A stretch of 7,478 bases of DNA, from contig JACAFS010000045.1 in NCBI GenBank assembly GCA_013378385.1, forward strand, positions 1-7,478, given 5' to 3'. The number at the start of each line of letters is the position of its first letter. The stretch's first letter is position 1. Made by a program: the position numbers and the translations under genes. This stretch comes from Nitrososphaerota archaeon (GTDB taxonomy: Archaea; Thermoproteota; Nitrososphaeria; Nitrososphaerales; UBA57). A model generated the notes under the pieces. It saw only the letters and a program-made list of their open reading frames with translations, ran no database searches and was not told the DNA's origin. Positions 97 through 7,478 of this stretch are shown here, piece after piece.

Positions 97-1355
97 TGAA
101 AAAAACAGTATTATTAATAGGTCCAGTAACTCGCAGAGCAGGATACGGAGAGCAAGCAAGGTTCGCCCTTCGCTCCATGCGAGCACACGAAGACAGGTTC
201 AACATCCTAATCCAAGACATCCCGTGGGGCAAGTCTGGACAAGTATCTGAGGACAACGAAGAACAAAGATACATCAGAGAAACTATTGCAAAAACACAGC
301 ACCACATACAAAATAAACTACCAGTAGACATAACTCTCCAAGTCACTATCCCAAACGAGTTCAAGAAACTCGCACCAGTGAATATTGGCTACACAGCAGG
401 TATCGAGACAACCAGAGTCGCACCTCAATGGATTCAGCAAGCGGAATTGATGGACAAAATCATCCTTGTCTCCAACCACTCAAAGAATGTCTATGAGAAA
501 ACATCATATGAAGGAACTAATAACCAAACAGGAGAGAAGGTTATTATTCAGACGCAGGTTCCAATGGAAGTTGTAAACTATCCAGTTCGAAGCCTTGAGG
601 TTGATGACTTGGGACTTGAACTCAAACACGACTTCAACTTCCTCACTATCGCCCAACTTGGACCAAGAAAGAATCTCGCCAACACTGTCAAGTGGTTCCT
701 CGAAGAGTTCCACGACGACGAAGTTGGACTAGTAGTAAAAACTAATATGATGAACTGTAGCACTGCCGACGGACAATACTGCCTACAGACTATGAAAGAA
801 ATGACAAAGCAGTTCCCAGACAGAAAATGCAGTGTCCATCTACTTCACGGAGACTTGTCTCTCGAACAAATGAATTCACTCTACACTCATCCAAAAATGA
901 AGGGTTTCGTCACTCTCACTCACGGCGAAGGATATGGACTCCCCATCTTCGAAGCAGCATACCACGGCTTGCCCGTAGTTGCCCCTGGTTGGAGCGGACA
1001 AAATGACTTCCTCTATGCCCCCGTCAAAAGCGGAAAACAAAAGAAAGCGAAGCTACGCCCCCTATTTGCAAAAGTTGACTACACCATAGGACAAGTTCCA
1101 CGACAGGCAGTTTGGGAGGGAGTAATCCAACAAGACGCTGGATGGTGCTACCCAACTGAAGACGGAGCAAAGACGACAATGAGAGATGTCTATGAAAATC
1201 ACTCAAAGTATGTTGGAATGTCTCGTAAACTTGAGAAGCATATATTGAAGAACTTTACTGAAGAGCAAATGACAACTAAGTTCGCCAACGCGGTTTATGA
1301 ACCAGATCCAGAATATATAGAGTGGATGAGACAATTGGACGAGATTAATGACTGA
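96..1355 (+). CDS. Glycosyltransferase, GT-B fold, family 4 / group 1 type
   Basis: 419-aa ORF with SD-like GAGGAAG at 84-90. The C-terminal half carries the Glycos_transf_1 signature ...FVTLTHGEGYGLPIFEAAYHGLPVVAPGWSGQNDF..., which is the E-x7-E nucleotide-sugar binding motif (EGYGLPIFE). It is preceded by ...NFLTIAQLGPRKNLANTVKWF..., typical of the start of the second Rossmann-like domain. The N-terminus LLIGPVTRRAGYGEQARFALRSM fits a GT4 N-terminal loop plus helix. Donor and acceptor cannot be read from the sequence. Confidence 0.8.
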   Translation: MKKTVLLIGPVTRRAGYGEQARFALRSMRAHEDRFNILIQDIPWGKSGQVSEDNEEQRYIRETIAKTQHHIQNKLPVDITLQVTIPNEFKKLAPVNIGYTAGIETTRVAPQWIQQAELMDKIILVSNHSKNVYEKTSYEGTNNQTGEKVIIQTQVPMEVVNYPVRSLEVDDLGLELKHDFNFLTIAQLGPRKNLANTVKWFLEEFHDDEVGLVVKTNMMNCSTADGQYCLQTMKEMTKQFPDRKCSVHLLHGDLSLEQMNSLYTHPKMKGFVTLTHGEGYGLPIFEAAYHGLPVVAPGWSGQNDFLYAPVKSGKQKKAKLRPLFAKVDYTIGQVPRQAVWEGVIQQDAGWCYPTEDGAKTTMRDVYENHSKYVGMSRKLEKHILKNFTEEQMTTKFANAVYEPDPEYIEWMRQLDEIND

Positions 1356-2199
1356 CGACATAATAATGGTAATGGATTTTTATTTCTCGGAAATAAAGGG
1401 AGGCGCGGAATTAAATGCCGAAACTCTTATTGACAGGTTTTCAGATGCAGGGTATAATATAAAAAAAGTTAAGTCAGCATCGTTGACTGTTGATTTTTTG
1501 AAACAAAACGTAGACAAAAAGTTTATATTCTCAAATTTTATTTTTGTAAGTAAGGATTGTAGGGAATACGCTATAAAAAACTTGCAATACGCCATATACG
1601 AACAAGATCATAAATATCTTAAAACTAGGAATCCTATTCAATATGTTGACTTTATCGCCCCAAAGGATCAGTTGGCAAATATTGAATTCTATAAAAATGC
1701 AGTAGTAGTGTTCTTTTTAACCAAGTTGGCTACAGATGTATTTGTTGCGAATACGAGATTACAAAATGTGTGTAATTTAAAATCCTCTGTGTGGAGAAAA
1801 GAAGAACTGGACTTCATGAAGACGATATGTGATACCGAAAAAATAAAAGAAAATGCAGTTCTTGATTCGAGCAACCCTATTAAAAAAAGAGGAAAGTGCA
1901 TTAGTTATTGTGAAAGAAATAATTTGGAATATGAATTAATAAAAGATGACGATTTTAAAACTTTCTTAAAAAAGATGTCTTCTTTTAAGAGACTTATTTT
2001 CTTCACAGGGCATTTAGAAACTTGTGCCAGAATTTTAGTGGAAGCTAAGATGCTAAACTTGGAAGTAACGTATCAAAAGAGGCTCATTGGAGCAGCTTCA
2101 GAAGAATGGTTTAGTCTATCTGGCATTGACATGATTGATAAGATGGAAGAGATAAGCTCACATATGCCCGATAAGGTTTTGGAGTATTTCAATGATTAA
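1348..2199 (+). CDS. Hypothetical protein; possible short, divergent GT-B (GT4-like) glycosyltransferase
   Basis: 283-aa ORF whose start overlaps the upstream stop (ATGACTGA). N-terminal ...FYFSEIKGGAELNAETLIDRFSDAGYNIKKV... resembles the GT4 G-G-x-E loop followed by a helix and strand. C-terminal ...RLIFFTGHLETCARILVEAKMLNLEV... resembles the E-x7-E region. It is short for a GT4. Alternative in-frame ATGs lie at 1366 and 1372. I am confident it is a real gene (length, coupling, no competing ORF), but the functional call is weak. Confidence 0.45.
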   Translation: MTDDIIMVMDFYFSEIKGGAELNAETLIDRFSDAGYNIKKVKSASLTVDFLKQNVDKKFIFSNFIFVSKDCREYAIKNLQYAIYEQDHKYLKTRNPIQYVDFIAPKDQLANIEFYKNAVVVFFLTKLATDVFVANTRLQNVCNLKSSVWRKEELDFMKTICDTEKIKENAVLDSSNPIKKRGKCISYCERNNLEYELIKDDDFKTFLKKMSSFKRLIFFTGHLETCARILVEAKMLNLEVTYQKRLIGAASEEWFSLSGIDMIDKMEEISSHMPDKVLEYFND

Positions 2200-3049
2200 G
2201 TGGAAAGACATACCTGTTAAGAGTAGAAAAGAAGTTTATAAAGAAATATCTCGCGACAAATCGCTTTTAATGAAGACGGCTATGTTCAAGGACATGTATA
2301 AAGGATTGGAATGTGTTGTCTTGAGTTGTGGCGTGAGCACCGCAGAGTTTCCAAAGGAAAAAATAGAGGAATTTTGTAAAGATAAACCAGTTTTTACAGT
2401 AAAGACTGCAACGACGAAATATTCAAATATATCAGATGTATGCATCACTAACTTATATGCAACTTGCGATTTCCCAAAAGAGAGGGATTATCTTATATTC
2501 GCAAGGCAAGAAATGCCATTAGGATACGACAATTGGATAAATCCAGATTTAGTAGATACGGAAACTCTCACGCAGATGTTTTCCAATGAGCCAAATATTC
2601 TGTGGGGATCTGACATATCTGCAAGACATTCTAACTCTGTCGTAAACGCTGATAGGTGGGATGAGAACTCTTTACAAAAAAATCCCTTTAATAGAATCAT
2701 AGGACCTGGTATAATGAATGACATGGTAGTTCCTATATTAGTTCATTGCGGAATTAGCAAAGTCAGTATCTTAGGATGGGATGGAGCTAATATTCAGAAT
2801 GACGGAAGTATCAAACATTTCTACGATGTAGAAACAGAATACAAGCCAGATATAAACTATGTTTCAAGTAAGTTCAATTTAAACAATCTAAAATCAGATA
2901 CCAATGAATGCGAGCAGCAAATAGCTAAGAAGGGCGAATTGTCGGTAATGCGTTACCTTAAAAGTAAAAATATAGAAATAGAGATTTTGACAAAGAATAG
3001 CAATATAAATGATAATATTAATAGGAACTACGTTCTTTATGGAGAATAG
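2192..3049 (+). CDS. Hypothetical protein; candidate DUF115/Maf-like or GT42-like nonulosonic-acid transferase
   Basis: 285-aa ORF with an ATGATTAA overlap with the upstream stop and GGAG about 8 nt upstream. Two motif blocks sit in the order and spacing seen in DUF115 (MptE/Maf) proteins and in CstII-type sialyltransferases. The first is an early strand-loop, GLECVVLSCGVSTAEFPKEKIEEF (compare xxIAGNGPSLxxI), followed by KPVFTVKTAT...SDVCITN. The second is a late block, IIGPGIMNDMVVPILVHCGISKVSILGWDGANI (compare small-residue loop, helix, LGxxxIxLxGxD). The C-terminus is Asn-rich and low in complexity. The gene sits directly upstream of a NeuB synthase and a cytidylyltransferase. The family assignment is by eye only. 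Confidence 0.4.
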   Translation: MIKWKDIPVKSRKEVYKEISRDKSLLMKTAMFKDMYKGLECVVLSCGVSTAEFPKEKIEEFCKDKPVFTVKTATTKYSNISDVCITNLYATCDFPKERDYLIFARQEMPLGYDNWINPDLVDTETLTQMFSNEPNILWGSDISARHSNSVVNADRWDENSLQKNPFNRIIGPGIMNDMVVPILVHCGISKVSILGWDGANIQNDGSIKHFYDVETEYKPDINYVSSKFNLNNLKSDTNECEQQIAKKGELSVMRYLKSKNIEIEILTKNSNINDNINRNYVLYGE

Positions 3050-3883
3050 GTGAAAAAGACATACATAATTGCAGAAATCGGAATAAACCACAACGGATGT
3101 TTAGAAACAGCTAAGAGGCTTATAGACGTAGCAGCAGTCTCAGGCTGCGATGCCGTTAAGTTTCAGAAGAGAAATCCAGACATTTGCGTCCCAGAACACC
3201 AGAAAGGTGTGATACGAGATACTCCGTGGGGCAAGATGACTTATCTCGAATACAAACATCGTGTAGAGTTCGGAAAGAAAGAATACGATGAAATAGACGC
3301 ATACTGTAAGCTCAGAGGCATTGCATGGTCTGCCTCTCCTTGGGATGTTGATAGTCTTAAGTTTCTAATGAAATATGATATTCCATTTATTAAAGTACCG
3401 TCAGCAATGATAACTAATAAAACTCTCATGTCAGCGGTAGCACAGACTGGTAAAAAGGTTATTTTCTCCGTCGGCATGAGCAATCTCAAAGAAATTGACA
3501 TCGCTGTCCAGCAAATGAGAGATAAAAAAGTAGACTTCAGTTTACTTCATTGTAATTCCACTTACCCAGCGCCTCTCTCCGAATTAAACCTGTCTTGTAT
3601 AGGAACTTTGAAGGAGCGCTATGGATGTGAAGTGGGATATAGTGGACATGAGTTTAGGCTCGGAACATCTGTGGCAGCAATATATCTCGGAGCCACTATA
3701 ATAGAAAGACATATAACTCTTGACAGAACTATGTGGGGTACGGATCAATTATCGTCAGTAGAACCTCAAGGATTGATTAAGTTGGTAAAAGGAATCAGAG
3801 AACTGGAACTTGCATATGGCGACGGAGTTAAAAGAGTAACAGAGAGTGAATTAGGTCCTAGAAAGAAACTAAGGGGATACTAA
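3050..3883 (+). CDS. neuB: NeuB-family nonulosonic/sialic acid synthase, catalytic TIM-barrel domain only (no SAF domain)
   Basis: 277 aa. The GTG start at 3050 is forced. An in-frame TAG sits at 3047-3049, the conserved strand YIIAEIGINHNG begins at codon 5, and the first internal Met is residue 62. GGAG lies at 3041-3044. NeuB motifs are present in order: IIAEIGINHNG, CDAVKFQK, FIKVPS, KVIFSVGMS, LLHCNSTYPAP, VGYSGHE, IIERHITLD. The protein ends ...DGVKRVTESELGPRKKLRGY*, in the linker where the SAF domain normally starts. The symbol is family level only; neuB, pseI and legI orthology is undetermined. Confidence 0.8.
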   Translation: MKKTYIIAEIGINHNGCLETAKRLIDVAAVSGCDAVKFQKRNPDICVPEHQKGVIRDTPWGKMTYLEYKHRVEFGKKEYDEIDAYCKLRGIAWSASPWDVDSLKFLMKYDIPFIKVPSAMITNKTLMSAVAQTGKKVIFSVGMSNLKEIDIAVQQMRDKKVDFSLLHCNSTYPAPLSELNLSCIGTLKERYGCEVGYSGHEFRLGTSVAAIYLGATIIERHITLDRTMWGTDQLSSVEPQGLIKLVKGIRELELAYGDGVKRVTESELGPRKKLRGY

Positions 3884-4566
3884 TGAAAGCTCCAGAAGAA
3901 GTAGCAGTTTTAATCCAAGCTAGATTATCCAGTCAGCGATGTCCAAGAAAGATGATACGTCAATTCGCAGATACAACATTGATGGATCTCTGCATTCAAA
4001 AATTAGTAGAATCTAATATTCCAAACGAGAATATATGGATTTCAGTGCATGAACCAGAACTGGTTGAATTGGTAAAGAAATATCCAGTTAATCTATTTCA
4101 TCGATCAGAGAAATCAGCAATGTCTGAGGGCACCCCTTTGACTGAAATTTATGATTGGTGGGATAAACTACCTCACAAGTACGTGGTATTAGTTAATGCC
4201 TGTGCGCCTTTTCTTAAAACTGAGACAATTGAGAGATTCTTTAGTGATTATTGTTCAACTGAAAATAATGGCATGTTTGGCGTAGTTTCAAAGAAAAACT
4301 ATTTTTGGTCTCATGACGGAGAATTCTTAACCCCTATGAATGAGGTAATAATGAATACTAAAACCGCCAATCCTGTTATGGAGGCTGCACACTGCTTGTA
4401 CGCTAGTTCGCAGGCTTCAATTGGTCAAGGAATATGGATGGGTAGATTTAATGTACCAGGAGAAATTAAACTATGGCATATGGCTGAAGAAGAAATATTC
4501 GACATTGACTATGAGTGGGAATTCAAAATGTATGAAGCGCTATATAAAAGTTTAAATAACACTTGA
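3883..4566 (+). CDS. Cytidylyltransferase-family protein (CTP_transf_3; candidate CMP-nonulosonate synthetase), divergent
   Basis: 227 aa with a TAATG overlap with the upstream stop and AGGGG about 8 nt upstream. N-terminal VAVLIQARLSSQRCPRKMI matches the (I/V)xAR-x2-S-x-R-x-P-x-K phosphate-binding loop of the NeuA/KdsB/PseF family. YVVLVNACAPFL sits where the family has the (Q)xT(S)P or QGDEP block. The C-terminal IFDIDYEWEFKMYEALYK matches the common xDIDtxeDfxxaexl ending. The context next to a NeuB gene fits this call. Confidence 0.6.
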   Translation: MKAPEEVAVLIQARLSSQRCPRKMIRQFADTTLMDLCIQKLVESNIPNENIWISVHEPELVELVKKYPVNLFHRSEKSAMSEGTPLTEIYDWWDKLPHKYVVLVNACAPFLKTETIERFFSDYCSTENNGMFGVVSKKNYFWSHDGEFLTPMNEVIMNTKTANPVMEAAHCLYASSQASIGQGIWMGRFNVPGEIKLWHMAEEEIFDIDYEWEFKMYEALYKSLNNT

Positions 4567-4591
4567 TAAGCGATAAAAATCGTGTTATTAT
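4563..4591 (+). promoter_or_regulatory. Candidate sigma70-type promoter with extended -10, driving the downstream gene block
   Basis: This lies in the only intergenic gap of the window. TTGATA at 4563-4568 is the -35 (5/6 to TTGACA) and overlaps the TGA stop at 4564-4566. After a 17-nt spacer comes TGtTATTAT at 4583-4591, i.e. an extended -10 TG plus TATTAT (5/6 to TATAAT). The downstream SD GGAG at 4615-4618 sits 7 nt before ATG 4626. An alternative AT-rich element, TATAAAAA, lies at 4598-4605. Confidence 0.4.
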
Positions 4592-4625
4592 ATTGTATAT
4601 AAAAACTGGATGACGGAGCGGACTC

Positions 4626-5618
4626 ATGAATAGCTTTATAAGTGGAAGAAAATTCTTTATTACTGGCGGAACTGGGACACTGGGCAAAGCCTTGGTAAAA
4701 AGAATCCTTCATAACGATGGGCAAGTAGTTGTCTACAGTAGAGATGAAGGAAAACAAGCACTTAACTTCGGACAGAATAAAGACGTCAAGTGTATTATTG
4801 GAGACGTTAGGGATTATAGTAAGTTATCCGTCTCTATATTTCGCGAAAAGCCCGACATTGTAATACACACGGCAGCGCTGAAAAGAATTGATGACATGGA
4901 GATACACCCAGACGAGTGTATAAAAACAAACATAACTGGCTCCGAAAATGTTGCAAGAGCTTGTCTCGAAAATCATATTGATAAGTGCATTCTTATATCA
5001 ACAGATAAAGCCTGTCAACCCGTGAATGTTTATGGATCTTCAAAGTTCATTGCTGAAAGGCTCTTTACAAATTATGACTATAATAGTAATCATACAATAT
5101 TCTCATCAGTAAGGTATGGTAATGTCATATGTAGTAGAGGCTCATTTATCCCTTTATGGCTAGGAATGTTGAATGAAGGGAAAAACATTAGTGTCACATC
5201 GTTGGAAATGACTAGATTCTTGTTTACTATTGAAGATGCAGTGGATACTGTTTTAGGTTCAGTGTATCATTCTGAGGGAGGAGAAGTATTCATTCCTCAA
5301 ATCAAATCTTTCGATATGAGTACAATTATAAGCGCCATCGGAACCATAACTGCACAAGATGTTGGTTATGATTTAATTGGATTGAGACCTGGCGAGAAGT
5401 TGCATGAAGACATGTTGGCTGAAACTGAACTACCTTTTACATTCAAGGTGCCAGATATAAATTTGCTCTGTGTCCGCCCTCAGTATACCGAGAGGAAGCA
5501 CAACACTGAGTGGGAGAAATATAATGGTGAGCATTTCAATTCCGCATTGCACGTTTCAAATGAAGTCAACCAATTGATAAAGCTTATCAAAAAAGGAAGT
5601 ATAGAAAGTGGTTCTTGA
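4626..5618 (+). CDS. pseB: UDP-N-acetylglucosamine 4,6-dehydratase, PseB/FlaA1-type (Polysacc_synt_2 short-form SDR)
   Basis: 330 aa. Near-continuous motif agreement with PseB/FlaA1 as I recall it: FFITGGTGTLGK, VYSRDEGKQ, IIGDVRD, IHTAALKRI, DECIKTNITGSENVARAC, LISTDKACQPVNVYGSSK (TDK plus YxxxK retained), VRYGNVICSRGSFIPLW, MTRFLFT, GGEVFIPQIKS, GLRPGEKLHEDM. The symbol reflects family resemblance. The true pathway role is uncertain because the adjacent gene is a reductase. Confidence 0.85.
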   Translation: MNSFISGRKFFITGGTGTLGKALVKRILHNDGQVVVYSRDEGKQALNFGQNKDVKCIIGDVRDYSKLSVSIFREKPDIVIHTAALKRIDDMEIHPDECIKTNITGSENVARACLENHIDKCILISTDKACQPVNVYGSSKFIAERLFTNYDYNSNHTIFSSVRYGNVICSRGSFIPLWLGMLNEGKNISVTSLEMTRFLFTIEDAVDTVLGSVYHSEGGEVFIPQIKSFDMSTIISAIGTITAQDVGYDLIGLRPGEKLHEDMLAETELPFTFKVPDINLLCVRPQYTERKHNTEWEKYNGEHFNSALHVSNEVNQLIKLIKKGSIESGS

Positions 5619-6417
5619 TAAAACTCTCTTAATCACTGGAACAACTGGAATGCTAGGTAAGCAGTTTTTAGATTTTTTTAAAGATAAATGCAACAATGTA
5701 TACACTTTGAATAGAGTGGATGGTGACTTGCTAGATTTTGATTTTGTTAAAGAATTCGCCTTAAAATATAACCCTGATATAATAATTCACTGCATTGCGA
5801 ATACAAACTTGAAGTATTGCGAAGAGCAAGAAAAAGATACACTATTGCTACATTGTGGATTAACTCATTGTTTATCATCACTTGATTGTAAGATGGTATA
5901 CATATCAACTAGTTCTGCGCAAGATCCACATAATTTTTACGACAAAACAAAACTCCTCGGAGAGCAAATTTGTTTACTAAACAATAAAAATAATTTAGTA
6001 ATAAGAACAAATATATACGGAATCAATTCTAGTTCTGGAAAATCATTATTCGAATGGGCTTATAACAGTCTGACTGAAGACATACAAATAACGGGGTATT
6101 CTGACGTTTACTTTAATGCAGTTTACACTAAGCAGCTTGTAAGAACGGTATTCGACTTAATCAATAAAGAACACACAGGGATAATCAACATCGCTGGTGA
6201 TTATACTGTTAGTAAATTTAAGTTTCTTCAAAAGGTGTGCGAGATTTTTGAATTCGACAAAAACCTTCTGATTAAAGGCACTCAACCTGCAAATGCTTTA
6301 GTAAAGAGAAGTAAGAATATAGCATTAAATGTTAATGAAATAAAACAAAAATACAATATTAGGTTACACTTAGAAGAGGGGCTGAGTGAACTTAAAAACG
6401 ACTTGGAGATACAATGA
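5608..6417 (+). CDS. RmlD-like NAD(P)H-dependent nucleotide-sugar 4-ketoreductase (SDR)
   Basis: 269 aa. The GTG start at 5608 is the first start candidate after the in-frame TAG at 5602-5604. The first ATG would remove the Rossmann motif LLITGTTGMLGK. AGGAAG lies at 5594-5599. The start overlaps the dehydratase 3' end by 11 nt. The layout is RmlD_sub_bind-like: a short N-terminal Rossmann domain, NPDIIIHCIANTN, YISTSS, FYDKTKLLGEQ (YxxxK), LVIRTNIYG, KSLFEWA, NAVYTKQL and GIINIAGD. Confidence 0.65.
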   Translation: MVLDKTLLITGTTGMLGKQFLDFFKDKCNNVYTLNRVDGDLLDFDFVKEFALKYNPDIIIHCIANTNLKYCEEQEKDTLLLHCGLTHCLSSLDCKMVYISTSSAQDPHNFYDKTKLLGEQICLLNNKNNLVIRTNIYGINSSSGKSLFEWAYNSLTEDIQITGYSDVYFNAVYTKQLVRTVFDLINKEHTGIINIAGDYTVSKFKFLQKVCEIFEFDKNLLIKGTQPANALVKRSKNIALNVNEIKQKYNIRLHLEEGLSELKNDLEIQ

Positions 6418-7478
6418 AGGAAATAACCATAGACAATAAGAAAATAGGTCCGAACCAACCGACATATTTTATAGCAGATATTGCCGCAAATCATGATGGT
6501 GATTTAGAAAGAGCAAAGATGCTATGCAAGCTTGCAAAGGACAGCGGAGCAGATGCAGTAAAATTTCAACACCATAACTGTAAAAAATACGTTAGCGATT
6601 ATGGATTTAAAAATTTAGGAGGCAAATTCAGTCATCAATCTTCATGGAAAGAATCAATCTATGATACATATAAATCTGCTGAAGTGCCTTCATCTTGGAC
6701 AACTGAATTAAAGAAATATTGTAACGAAATGGGAATAACGATGTTCTCAACGCCTTACGATTTAGAAATGGTGGAACATTTAAATAATTTTATTGATTGT
6801 TATAAAATAGGATCAGGAGATCTGGCATTTGATTTAATGATAGAAACGGTTGCTAAGACGAAAAAGCCAGTTATGATATCAACTGGTGCCTCTACCTTAG
6901 ATGAGGTTGAAAACGCTGTTGAGATACTGAGGAAAAATAATACAGATATTGTCCTAATGCAATGTAACACAAACTACACAGGGAATGATGAAAACTTCGA
7001 TTTCATCAATTTAAACGTTTTAAATAAATACAAAAGAATGTTTCCAGATGTTATTATTGGGTTGAGCGATCATACTCATGGCTCAGTTACTACCTTGGGT
7101 GCTGTGGCTTTAGGGGCAAGAGTTGTTGAAAAACACTTTACAGATGACAATAGCCGTCCTGGACCAGATCACCCCTTTTCAATGAATCCTAAATCATGGA
7201 GAGAAATGGTTAATCATACGAGAATATTAGAAAGATCTATGGGCACTGATGTCAAGAAAGTTGAAGAAAACGAAAAAGAAACAGTGGTGCTGCAACGCAG
7301 AGCATTGCGACTTGTCAAGGATATGAAAAAAGGCGAGCTAATTTCTGTGTCTGATTTTGAATTTCAAAGACCTTGCCCTGAAGATGCCTTATCTATAAAC
7401 AAATTTAAAGCAATTATAAATAAAAAAATAAATAGAGATATTCCTTCTGGAGATTATCTTAAAGCTGGAGATATTGAC
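6414..7478 (+). CDS. neuB: NeuB-family nonulosonic acid synthase with C-terminal SAF domain (3' end runs off the window)
   Basis: Absent from the ORF track because it has no stop in the window. I translated it by hand from ATG 6414 (ATGA overlap with the upstream stop, GGAG at 6404-6407). It stays open for 355 codons to the window end. NeuB motifs: TYFIADIAANHDGDLERAK, ADAVKFQHH, YKIGSGD, KPVMISTGAS, LMQCNTNYTG, IGLSDHTHG, VVEKHFTDD...GPDHPFSMNP. These are followed by a SAF-like tail, VVLQRRALRLVKDMKKGELISVSDFEFQRPCP...INRDIPSGDYLKAGDID. It is probably only a few codons short of complete. The symbol is family level only. Confidence 0.85.
   Translation, partial: MKEITIDNKKIGPNQPTYFIADIAANHDGDLERAKMLCKLAKDSGADAVKFQHHNCKKYVSDYGFKNLGGKFSHQSSWKESIYDTYKSAEVPSSWTTELKKYCNEMGITMFSTPYDLEMVEHLNNFIDCYKIGSGDLAFDLMIETVAKTKKPVMISTGASTLDEVENAVEILRKNNTDIVLMQCNTNYTGNDENFDFINLNVLNKYKRMFPDVIIGLSDHTHGSVTTLGAVALGARVVEKHFTDDNSRPGPDHPFSMNPKSWREMVNHTRILERSMGTDVKKVEENEKETVVLQRRALRLVKDMKKGELISVSDFEFQRPCPEDALSINKFKAIINKKINRDIPSGDYLKAGDID

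Follow-up and report, generated by a model that had tools for sequence, protein, structure and literature searches.

Nonulosonic acids are recognition and immune-evasion sugars, and the known bacterial routes to them, for neuraminic (Neu), legionaminic (Leg) and pseudaminic (Pse) acids, have defined enzyme sets. The window analyzed here, a whole stretch of 7,478 nucleotides (nt) of DNA (Nitrososphaerota archaeon assembly GCA_013378385.1, contig JACAFS010000045.1, forward strand), raised the question of what a PseB-type dehydratase makes when the next gene encodes an RmlD-like reductase and not the PseC aminotransferase of the Pse pathway. A reading of the sequence alone had offered two answers. 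In reading (a), the pair makes a 2-acetamido-2,6-dideoxyhexose linked to uridine diphosphate (UDP) as a separate donor for glycosyltransferases. In reading (b), the reductase product feeds the NeuB-family synthase encoded immediately downstream. The genes concerned were as follows.

3883-4566, + strand: CTP_transf_3 cytidylyltransferase, similar to cytidine monophosphate (CMP)-ulosonic acid synthetases (Pfam PF02348, E 2e-12)
4626-5618, + strand: predicted PseB-type UDP-N-acetylglucosamine (UDP-GlcNAc) 4,6-dehydratase (330 residues; TGGTGTLG, STDK, Y135xxxK139)
5608-6417, + strand: RmlD-fold short-chain dehydrogenase/reductase (SDR), proposed C4 ketoreductase (269 residues; G11xxG14xxG17, S100, Y111xxxK115)
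6414-7478, + strand: NeuB-family nonulosonic acid synthase with a SAF domain (the reading frame runs past the window end)

We considered it an evenly balanced proposition, on the sequence evidence, that the dehydratase/reductase pair carries out the first committed steps of a conserved nonulosonic acid cassette in an uncultured T4-like marine phage lineage. Reduction would then replace the transamination by PseC and would lead to a 7-hydroxy trideoxy nonulosonic acid. The gene arrangement was examined at the level of single codons and of whole loci. The dehydratase and reductase open reading frames (ORFs) overlapped by 11 nt (5608-5618), and the ATGA at 6414-6417 held both the reductase stop codon and the synthase ATG. 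The reductase ORF started with GTG, and AAAGGAAG preceded the start codon. Every long ORF in the window was on the + strand, and the ORFs were closely packed. Related loci were surveyed by tblastn and by hidden Markov model (HMM) searches on fetched sequence, 10 kb on each side of the cassette. This gave 49 loci, 21 of them viral, which are cited by number below. They included IMG/VR viral contigs, Tara contigs, Clostridium, Chitinophaga, Flavobacteria, the candidate phyla radiation (CPR) and a Woesearchaeote. The RmlD-like gene was directly followed by NeuB in 49 of 49 loci, and this held for every reductase relative above approximately 28% identity. The order PseB-like, RmlD-like, NeuB was found in approximately 20 contigs of uncultured T4-like marine phages and, among cells, in more than 25 loci (Clostridia, Bacteroidota, CPR, archaea). 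The sequence-only reading had favored a shared pathway for the three enzymes from their overlaps and order; with the order kept in 49 loci of viruses and several cellular phyla, we regard a shared pathway of the pair with NeuB as well supported.

The content of the cassette was similar across these loci. Approximately 20 viral loci held PseB-like, RmlD-like and NeuB genes together with a GNAT acetyltransferase, a PIG-L deacetylase, a formyltransferase and a cytidylyltransferase. They usually also held a Maf/MptE-like transferase, genes for family 4 glycosyltransferases (GT4) and a short NeuB. The viral locus L098 had the PseB-like, RmlD-like, NeuB, cytidylyltransferase and MptE-like genes alone, without GNAT. 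In bacteria, the cassette stood in a Chitinophaga capsule locus (L019, Wza-Ugd-Wzz-[PseB-RmlDlike-NeuB-GNAT-PseF]-Wzx), in two flagellin glycosylation islands with flagellar genes at their borders (L092 and L095) and within an ABC-transporter O-antigen locus (L093). The core was also found in Clostridium flagellin islands. Cultured bacteria with the cassette include Chitinophaga sp. GbtcB8, Clostridium carboxidivorans P7 and C. tetani. In the literature on RmlD-like enzymes in nonulosonic acid clusters, on fusaminic acid biosynthesis and on phage-encoded pathways, we did not find the cassette described.

Two islands carried further genes beside the cassette. In a more distant viral island (L008), a 2-oxoglutarate/Fe(II) (2OG-Fe(II)) oxygenase was located between the PIG-L and formyltransferase genes, and a radical SAM protein and a GFO_IDH_MocA/DAO fusion were also encoded (9118-9885, 11986-13503 and 14294-16066). 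These genes suggest further tailoring of the sugar. In the flagellin island of Clostridium magnum (L006, 3825-6449), an unannotated protein of 413 residues was followed by HisH- and HisF-like proteins. This set is reminiscent of the three acetamidino-forming proteins encoded in other nonulosonic acid clusters.

The dehydratase was compared with characterized families. It matched Pfam Polysacc_synt_2 (E 1.3e-76), and its best solved structure was Helicobacter pylori FlaA1/PseB (2gn4, E 1.9e-62). The window motifs STDKA...NVYGSSK aligned with STDKA...NLYGATK of 2gn4, and the Asp-Lys and Tyr-x-x-x-Lys residues were kept. CapE (3vvb) and the FnlA-type 4j2o both read INAMGISK, with Met at the position of the window Tyr. 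These results agreed with the earlier assignment to PseB/FlaA1 by motifs and with its statement that CapE/FnlA-type enzymes replace the Tyr with Met. In the active-site comparison that it had proposed, the window enzyme sided with FlaA1/PseB. The Tyr in place of Met and the score against the FnlA model TIGR04130 (204.2 bits, cut-off 730) did not fit a CapE/FnlA/WbvB-type dehydratase/5-epimerase. The score against the NCBIfam PseB model TIGR03589 was 266.5 bits, which was under the cut-off of 407.75; the bacterial cassette dehydratases passed it with 512.7, 519.8 and 536.8 bits. By these scores, the window dehydratase is PseB-like and not a certified PseB. Its positional counterparts in viral relatives were 57-74% identical to it. 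It also matched PDB chain 4tqg (E 2.4e-46), which we take to be Megavirus Mg534, a name that the PDB label does not give.

The second gene had been read as an RmlD-family SDR, and family, motifs and fold all supported this. The protein matched Pfam RmlD_sub_bind (E 6.8e-23) and carried TGTTGMLG (GxxGxxG) and YDKTK. Its AlphaFold model had a predicted local distance difference test (pLDDT) score of 94.6, and the best PDB matches of the model, 3sc6, 5u9c, 1vl0 and 1kbz, were all RmlD (template modeling (TM) score 0.82-0.89). The score against the RmlD model TIGR01214 was 81.9 bits, under the cut-off of 224, and the homologue of the bacterial cassette in L019 reached 145.4 bits. By these comparisons, the window reductase is a divergent RmlD-family member. 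In an alignment of 28 homologues, G11, G14, G17, S100, Y111 and K115 were invariant. GxxGxxG, Ser, Tyr, Lys and RTN(I/M)YG were invariant in 27 marine sequences of 48-73% identity and were kept in a second viral clade. The viral reductases of both clades lacked a loop of 13 residues that every cellular homologue has between the catalytic Ser/Thr and the Tyr (alignment A1, columns 127-139). The reductases of the two viral clades were 31-38% identical, whereas the dehydratases and synthases were 57-66% identical, indicating that the reductase diverges faster. No frameshifts or stop codons were found in the reductase ORF. A profile search gave at least 2,280 proteins in the reductase family, all of them generically named. 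Genes for rmlA, rmlB and rmlC were annotated neither in the window nor in the Pfam-annotated cassette loci. A split of the PseB reaction of the Pen/Pal type was considered and rejected: Pen (6bwc) matched the reductase weakly, and Pal was absent among the reductase matches.

The synthase appeared to belong to a group of its own. It matched Pfam NeuB (E 7e-74) and a SAF domain. The Pfam E-values of dehydratase, reductase and synthase are well outside the range of chance. Its scores were 248.6 bits against PseI TIGR03586 (cut-off 340.25) and 283.9 bits against NeuB TIGR03569 (cut-off 399.65). A bacterial cassette synthase similarly fitted neither model, with 245 bits for PseI (cut-off 340) and 281 bits for NeuB (cut-off 400). 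The window synthase was 87% identical to that of the locus L001 and 47-54% identical to bacterial cassette synthases. All cassette synthases, viral and cellular, carried KIGSGD and MQCNTNY, whereas canonical enzymes have HCxxxYP at the MQCNTNY site and PseI has KIASFE at the KIGSGD site. The Gly/Phe position is the C2 discriminator described in PMC7371886. At this position, the cassette synthase has Gly, like Neu and Leg enzymes, and PseI has Phe. Where such enzymes are said to recognize C4-C6 of the substrate, the cassette synthase aligned better with PseI (W...Y..Y.SA..P..W) than with NmNeuB. By these motifs, the cassette synthases are a distinct orthologous group, which is consistent with a distinct substrate. 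The window cytidylyltransferase scored 36 bits against PseF TIGR03584 (cut-off 205.7), whereas that of the bacterial modules was a true PseF (316 bits, cut-off 206). In viral relatives, its orthologues (45-71% identity) either directly preceded the PseB-like gene or directly followed that of the formyltransferase. It is probably the activating enzyme of the cassette.

The setting of the close relatives pointed to phages. Close relatives of the reductase (48-73% identity) were confined to IMG/VR viral contigs and to marine metagenome contigs, the longest of which reached 198 kb. Homologues in species-representative cellular genomes were at most 36% identical. The flanks of the relatives encoded a PhoH-like protein, a PD-(D/E)XK exonuclease, a gp44-like clamp loader with up to 47% identity to the versions of cultured cyano- and pelagimyophages, and a lysozyme domain with 47-52% identity to T4-like cyanophage endolysins. 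From these contigs of relatives, we conclude that the window is part of an uncultured T4-like marine myovirus. In 50,697 phage records, a megablast search with the whole window and a tblastn search with the reductase gave no match, and the dehydratase and synthase gave distant matches only. The window reductase itself had no entry in the contig index, and the JGI metagenome contigs did not contain an exact 39-mer taken from the 3' end of the window. A scan of IMG/VR with the single reductase sequence gave no match; the alignment-based scan of IMG/VR did find relatives.

Aminotransferases were sought by iterated HMM searches within 10 kb of the cassette in the 49 loci. A DegT aminotransferase was found in 10 loci and a class-III aminotransferase in three. 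Only two of the 21 viral loci had DegT, which was 7-9 kb off and beside other genes, and the other 19 had none. No PseC (DegT-family) aminotransferase was found in the window by a Pfam search. The self-contained modules L019, L092, L095 and L093 likewise had no aminotransferase. True PseG-like genes were found in only four loci, all cellular (L006, L014, L018 and L028), in a search seeded with a single Clostridium sequence and thus of limited sensitivity. That the aminotransferase and the hydrolase were recurrently absent from operons clearly bordered by other functions is the main argument for a pathway without 4-amination. In such a pathway, the RmlD-like enzyme would dispose of the 4-keto group by reduction. 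In L028 (816-3002), a metagenome-assembled genome (MAG) of Rhodospirillaceae, PseG-like and formyltransferase parts were located in one stop-to-stop ORF of 729 residues, beside a PseI-type NeuB and an RmlD-like gene. This ORF may be a fusion linking formylation to UDP-sugar hydrolysis.

The proposed pathway has five steps. In the first, judging from family and active-site residues, the PseB-type enzyme would convert UDP-GlcNAc to UDP-2-acetamido-2,6-dideoxy-4-hexulose. In the second, the RmlD-fold SDR would reduce the 4-keto group to a 4-hydroxyl with reduced nicotinamide adenine dinucleotide (phosphate), NAD(P)H. The product would be a UDP-linked 6-deoxy-N-acetylhexosamine (HexNAc), most simply 6-deoxy-L-N-acetylaltrosamine (6-deoxy-L-AltNAc). 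The fold and catalytic triad of the SDR, and the fact that an aminotransferase is systematically missing, suggest that this step replaces the transamination by PseC. UDP would be released from the sugar in the third step, before the synthase acts. In the fourth, the NeuB-clade synthase and phosphoenolpyruvate would give a 5-acetamido-3,5,9-trideoxy-nonulosonic acid with a 7-hydroxyl, a 7-hydroxy pseudaminic or fusaminic-type sugar. The upstream cytidylyltransferase would then form the CMP donor. In the closest relatives, the genes that come next after the point where the window ends encode a PseH/SpeG-like GNAT, a PIG-L deacetylase, a formyltransferase and a Maf/MptE-like transferase. This set would re-tailor the single N-acyl group, for example from acetyl to formyl, and move the sugar to a target.

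The 7-hydroxy product is the most economical, if unproven, inference, and it belongs to a sugar class of which one case is already known. According to PMC7371886 (citing Vinogradov 2017), PMC8517482 and PMC10915975, the O-chain of Fusobacterium nucleatum 25586 contains 6-deoxy-L-AltNAc and 5-acetimidoylamino-3,5,9-trideoxy-non-2-ulosonic acid, or fusaminic acid. The proposed sugar class has a precedent here: PMC7371886 already places fusaminic acid together with 6-deoxy-L-AltNAc. We found no description of fusaminic acid biosynthetic genes in the literature, and Fusobacterium was absent among the best 120 of the 2,280 reductase-family matches. As the main role of the pair, reading (b) was favored over (a) by the NeuB synteny and the aminotransferase-free modules; as originally written it lacked the UDP-releasing step, and its product is a deduced one. 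The two readings need not be alternatives, and (a) may apply as well, to judge from the F. nucleatum structure.

Several observations weighed against a pathway of reduction without amination. No PseG- or NeuC-type UDP-releasing enzyme was found in the cassette, and one pathway step had no candidate. The survey viewed 10 kb per side, and PseC and PseG could be encoded further off in the phage genomes of 84-198 kb, such as IMGVR_UViG_3300030098_006700 and ERZ2772644 NODE_35, or in the host. The window ends inside NeuB, so that the genes beyond are known from relatives alone. In 42 of 49 loci, a PseH/SpeG-like GNAT was located directly downstream of NeuB. By similarity, the GNAT of relatives is an amine N-acetyltransferase (SpeG, E 1e-12; Campylobacter jejuni PseH, E 4e-5), and the bacterial modules offered no obvious free amine for it. 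In the phage loci, the PIG-L deacetylase is a possible source of an amine, which the formyltransferase could then re-acylate. In L017, DegT was located immediately upstream of the reductase, and in L048 a class-III aminotransferase was located there; both argue against simple mutual exclusion. A class-III aminotransferase was also found near the cassette of L006. The loss of the 13-residue active-site loop from the viral reductases and the generic database names of the relatives, such as 'dTDP-4-dehydrorhamnose reductase family protein', are further points on this side. The sequence-only reading had named a PseC/LegC-type aminotransferase and an acetyltransferase adjacent downstream as evidence that would speak against it. 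In the relatives, this evidence was half present: 42 of 49 had the acetyltransferase, and no adjacent PseC/LegC-type enzyme was found except in L017.

These observations lead to the best-surviving alternative, which we consider somewhat unlikely. The product could be an ordinary diamino sugar of the pseudaminic type, with a PseC-type aminotransferase elsewhere in the phage genome or the host and with GNAT as a true PseH. The RmlD-fold protein would then have another role, for example replacing PseG, or a redox or epimerization function. The GNAT of relatives scored 55-77 bits (top 76.8) against PseH TIGR03585, under the cut-off of 93.1 and equal to its score against SpeG, and its presence in 42 of 49 loci fits this alternative. 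PseG was absent almost everywhere that the RmlD-like gene occurred. In L017, the order was PseB ... PseF-like, DegT, RmlD-like, NeuB, GNAT, which amounts to the whole Pse set except that the RmlD-like gene takes the place of PseG. The bacterial partners, in addition, were true PseB and PseF equivalogs. For Clostridium flagellin islands, a distant locus for PseC is also assumed in PMC13317340. However, most cellular loci and 19 of 21 viral loci had no DegT within 10 kb, and these included compact operons between unrelated genes. Neither its score nor the Phe discriminator marked the synthase as a PseI, and L098 had no GNAT. An RmlD fold with this triad is the architecture of NAD(P)H-dependent 4-ketoreductases, and to our knowledge no RmlD-fold enzyme releases UDP.

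The preferred pathway, reduction in place of transamination, can be extended to a more specific proposal, which as a whole we regard as unlikely. Four to five enzymes would suffice from UDP-GlcNAc to a CMP-3,5,9-trideoxy-nonulosonic acid, without an aminotransferase or a PseG/NeuC-type hydrolase, and a cassette protein would then have an undescribed UDP-releasing activity. An abundant lineage of T4-like marine phages would make the sugar in this way, tailor it with the deacetylase and formyltransferase, and attach it through the Maf-like transferase to a surface protein of the phage or its host. Candidates for UDP release under this proposal are the RmlD-fold SDR, the GNAT and the MQCNTNY synthase clade. 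As an alternative under the same proposal, the SDR and GNAT could jointly install an N-acetylamino group without pyridoxal phosphate.

It is very unlikely that reading (a) alone holds, with the pair making a UDP-2-acetamido-2,6-dideoxyhexose (of the 6-deoxy-AltNAc, N-acetylquinovosamine (QuiNAc) or N-acetylrhamnosamine (RhaNAc) type) solely as a glycosyltransferase donor and NeuB using an unrelated substrate. The pair would then be akin to WbvB/WbvR, FnlA/FnlB or Megavirus Mg534/Mg535. Pairs of a dehydratase and an RmlD-like reductase for UDP-L-RhaNAc and L-QuiNAc occur in bacteria and giant viruses, and the 4tqg match of the dehydratase counts on this side. GT4-like genes were also present nearby, and the F. 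nucleatum O-chain uses 6-deoxy-L-AltNAc itself as a residue. However, the reductase was tied to NeuB, and to no glycosyltransferase, in every locus examined, and because of this tie reading (a) is unlikely as the sole function. In addition, no WbvD/FnlC-type 2-epimerase was found in the survey of loci, the dehydratase has Tyr unlike the Met of the CapE/FnlA type, and neither NeuC nor another source of a separate NeuB substrate was present. Finally, it is hardly credible that the reductase of the viruses is in decay or is a non-catalytic remnant, kept only for structural or translational-coupling reasons: the missing loop and the faster divergence would fit it, but the motifs are invariant across the marine sequences and kept in the second viral clade, the model is confident and compact, and the ORF is intact.

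The remaining features of the window were located upstream of the dehydratase.

96-1355, + strand: GT4-like glycosyltransferase (PHROG 2170, E 9e-16)
1348-2199, + strand: ORF of 283 residues without a Pfam, NCBIfam or PHROG match
2192-3049, + strand: ORF of 285 residues without a Pfam, NCBIfam or PHROG match
3050-3883, + strand: short NeuB-family synthase without SAF domain (277 residues; LLHCNSTYP motif)
4563-4591, + strand: sigma-70-like promoter match (TTGATA-17-TATTAT with TG extension; 10 of 12 consensus positions)

The sole sizeable intergenic gap, 4567-4625, held the sigma-70-like site at 4563-4591. The whole window had 33 such sites and shuffled sequences had 23.3 (standard deviation 5.4), a small excess, and the site is a consensus match and nothing beyond. 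A full 12 of 12 consensus match, TTGACA-17-TATAAT, was located at 1430-1458 within the ORF 1348-2199 and may be due to chance. The two ORFs without a family match overlapped and were 62-64% identical to their L001 counterparts. The second also had weakly similar counterparts (23-29%) in further viral loci, where they separated the GT4 gene from the short NeuB. Other viral loci had the short NeuB at 70-81% identity. In L001, the short NeuB was followed by SDR, AP_endonuc_2, SDR and cupin genes, four genes that the window does not have. The short NeuB and these neighbors suggest a second ulosonic acid route within the same island. The guanine plus cytosine (G+C) fraction was 0.42-0.47 across the GT4-like gene (1-1300) and 0.29-0.40 across 1300-7478, and this fall hints at an island of mosaic origin.

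Taken as a whole, the cassette would be a Pse-like route in which reduction takes over from transamination. The cassette is widespread and unnamed, and the sugar class itself is not new. An aminotransferase-free cassette would, if true, give a genetic basis for trideoxy sugars of the fusaminic type, and the RmlD-like gene with the MQCNTNY synthase would serve as a genome marker set for them. In many uncultured T4-like marine phages, the cassette keeps a conserved position beside Maf-like and GT4 transferases, which suggests that phages in the ocean direct glycosylation with a sialic-acid-like sugar. The UDP-release step and the role of the GNAT are concrete, testable biochemical questions.

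The cassette was compared with four known systems. Like RmlD, the dTDP-6-deoxy-L-lyxo-4-hexulose reductase, the window reductase has the fold (TM score 0.86-0.89), the cofactor motif and the Ser/Thr-Tyr-Lys triad. Unlike RmlD, it is only approximately 20% identical, scores under the family cut-off and has no RmlA, RmlB or RmlC genes nearby; the viral copies also lack the 13-residue loop, and the presumed substrate is a UDP-HexNAc derivative. The routes to UDP-L-RhaNAc, L-QuiNAc and L-N-acetylfucosamine (L-FucNAc) (WbvB/WbvR/WbvD, FnlA/B/C, CapE/F/G; Megavirus Mg534/Mg535 and Mimivirus R141/L780) similarly use a UDP-GlcNAc 4,6-dehydratase and then a 4-ketoreductase, RmlD-like in some, and giant viruses also encode such pairs. 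However, the bacterial dehydratases of these routes (CapE, FnlA type) have Met for the catalytic Tyr, and their clusters include a UDP-sugar 2-epimerase but lack both a NeuB synthase and a cytidylyltransferase.

The Pse pathway of Campylobacter and Helicobacter (PseB, PseC, PseH, PseG, PseI, PseF) shares with the cassette a PseB-type dehydratase with Asp-Lys and Tyr-x-x-x-Lys, a NeuB-family synthase and a CMP-transferase. Bacterial cassettes even use true PseB and PseF equivalogs, and a PseH-like GNAT usually follows. In contrast, the cassette has no PseC and no PseG, and an RmlD-fold SDR is located between dehydratase and synthase. Its synthase is under the PseI cut-off, with Gly where PseI has Phe, and the window dehydratase and cytidylyltransferase are under the PseB and PseF cut-offs. 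The proposed product is unlike fusaminic acid in that the F. nucleatum sugar is known as a structure alone. Its stereochemistry (gluco, tentative) may differ, and it carries an acetimidoyl as N-acyl group, whereas a deacetylase and a formyltransferase are encoded in the phage relatives. Fusaminic acid is the only reported trideoxy nonulosonic acid (7-hydroxyl, 9-deoxy), and it co-occurs with the very sugar expected from PseB and a 4-reductase.

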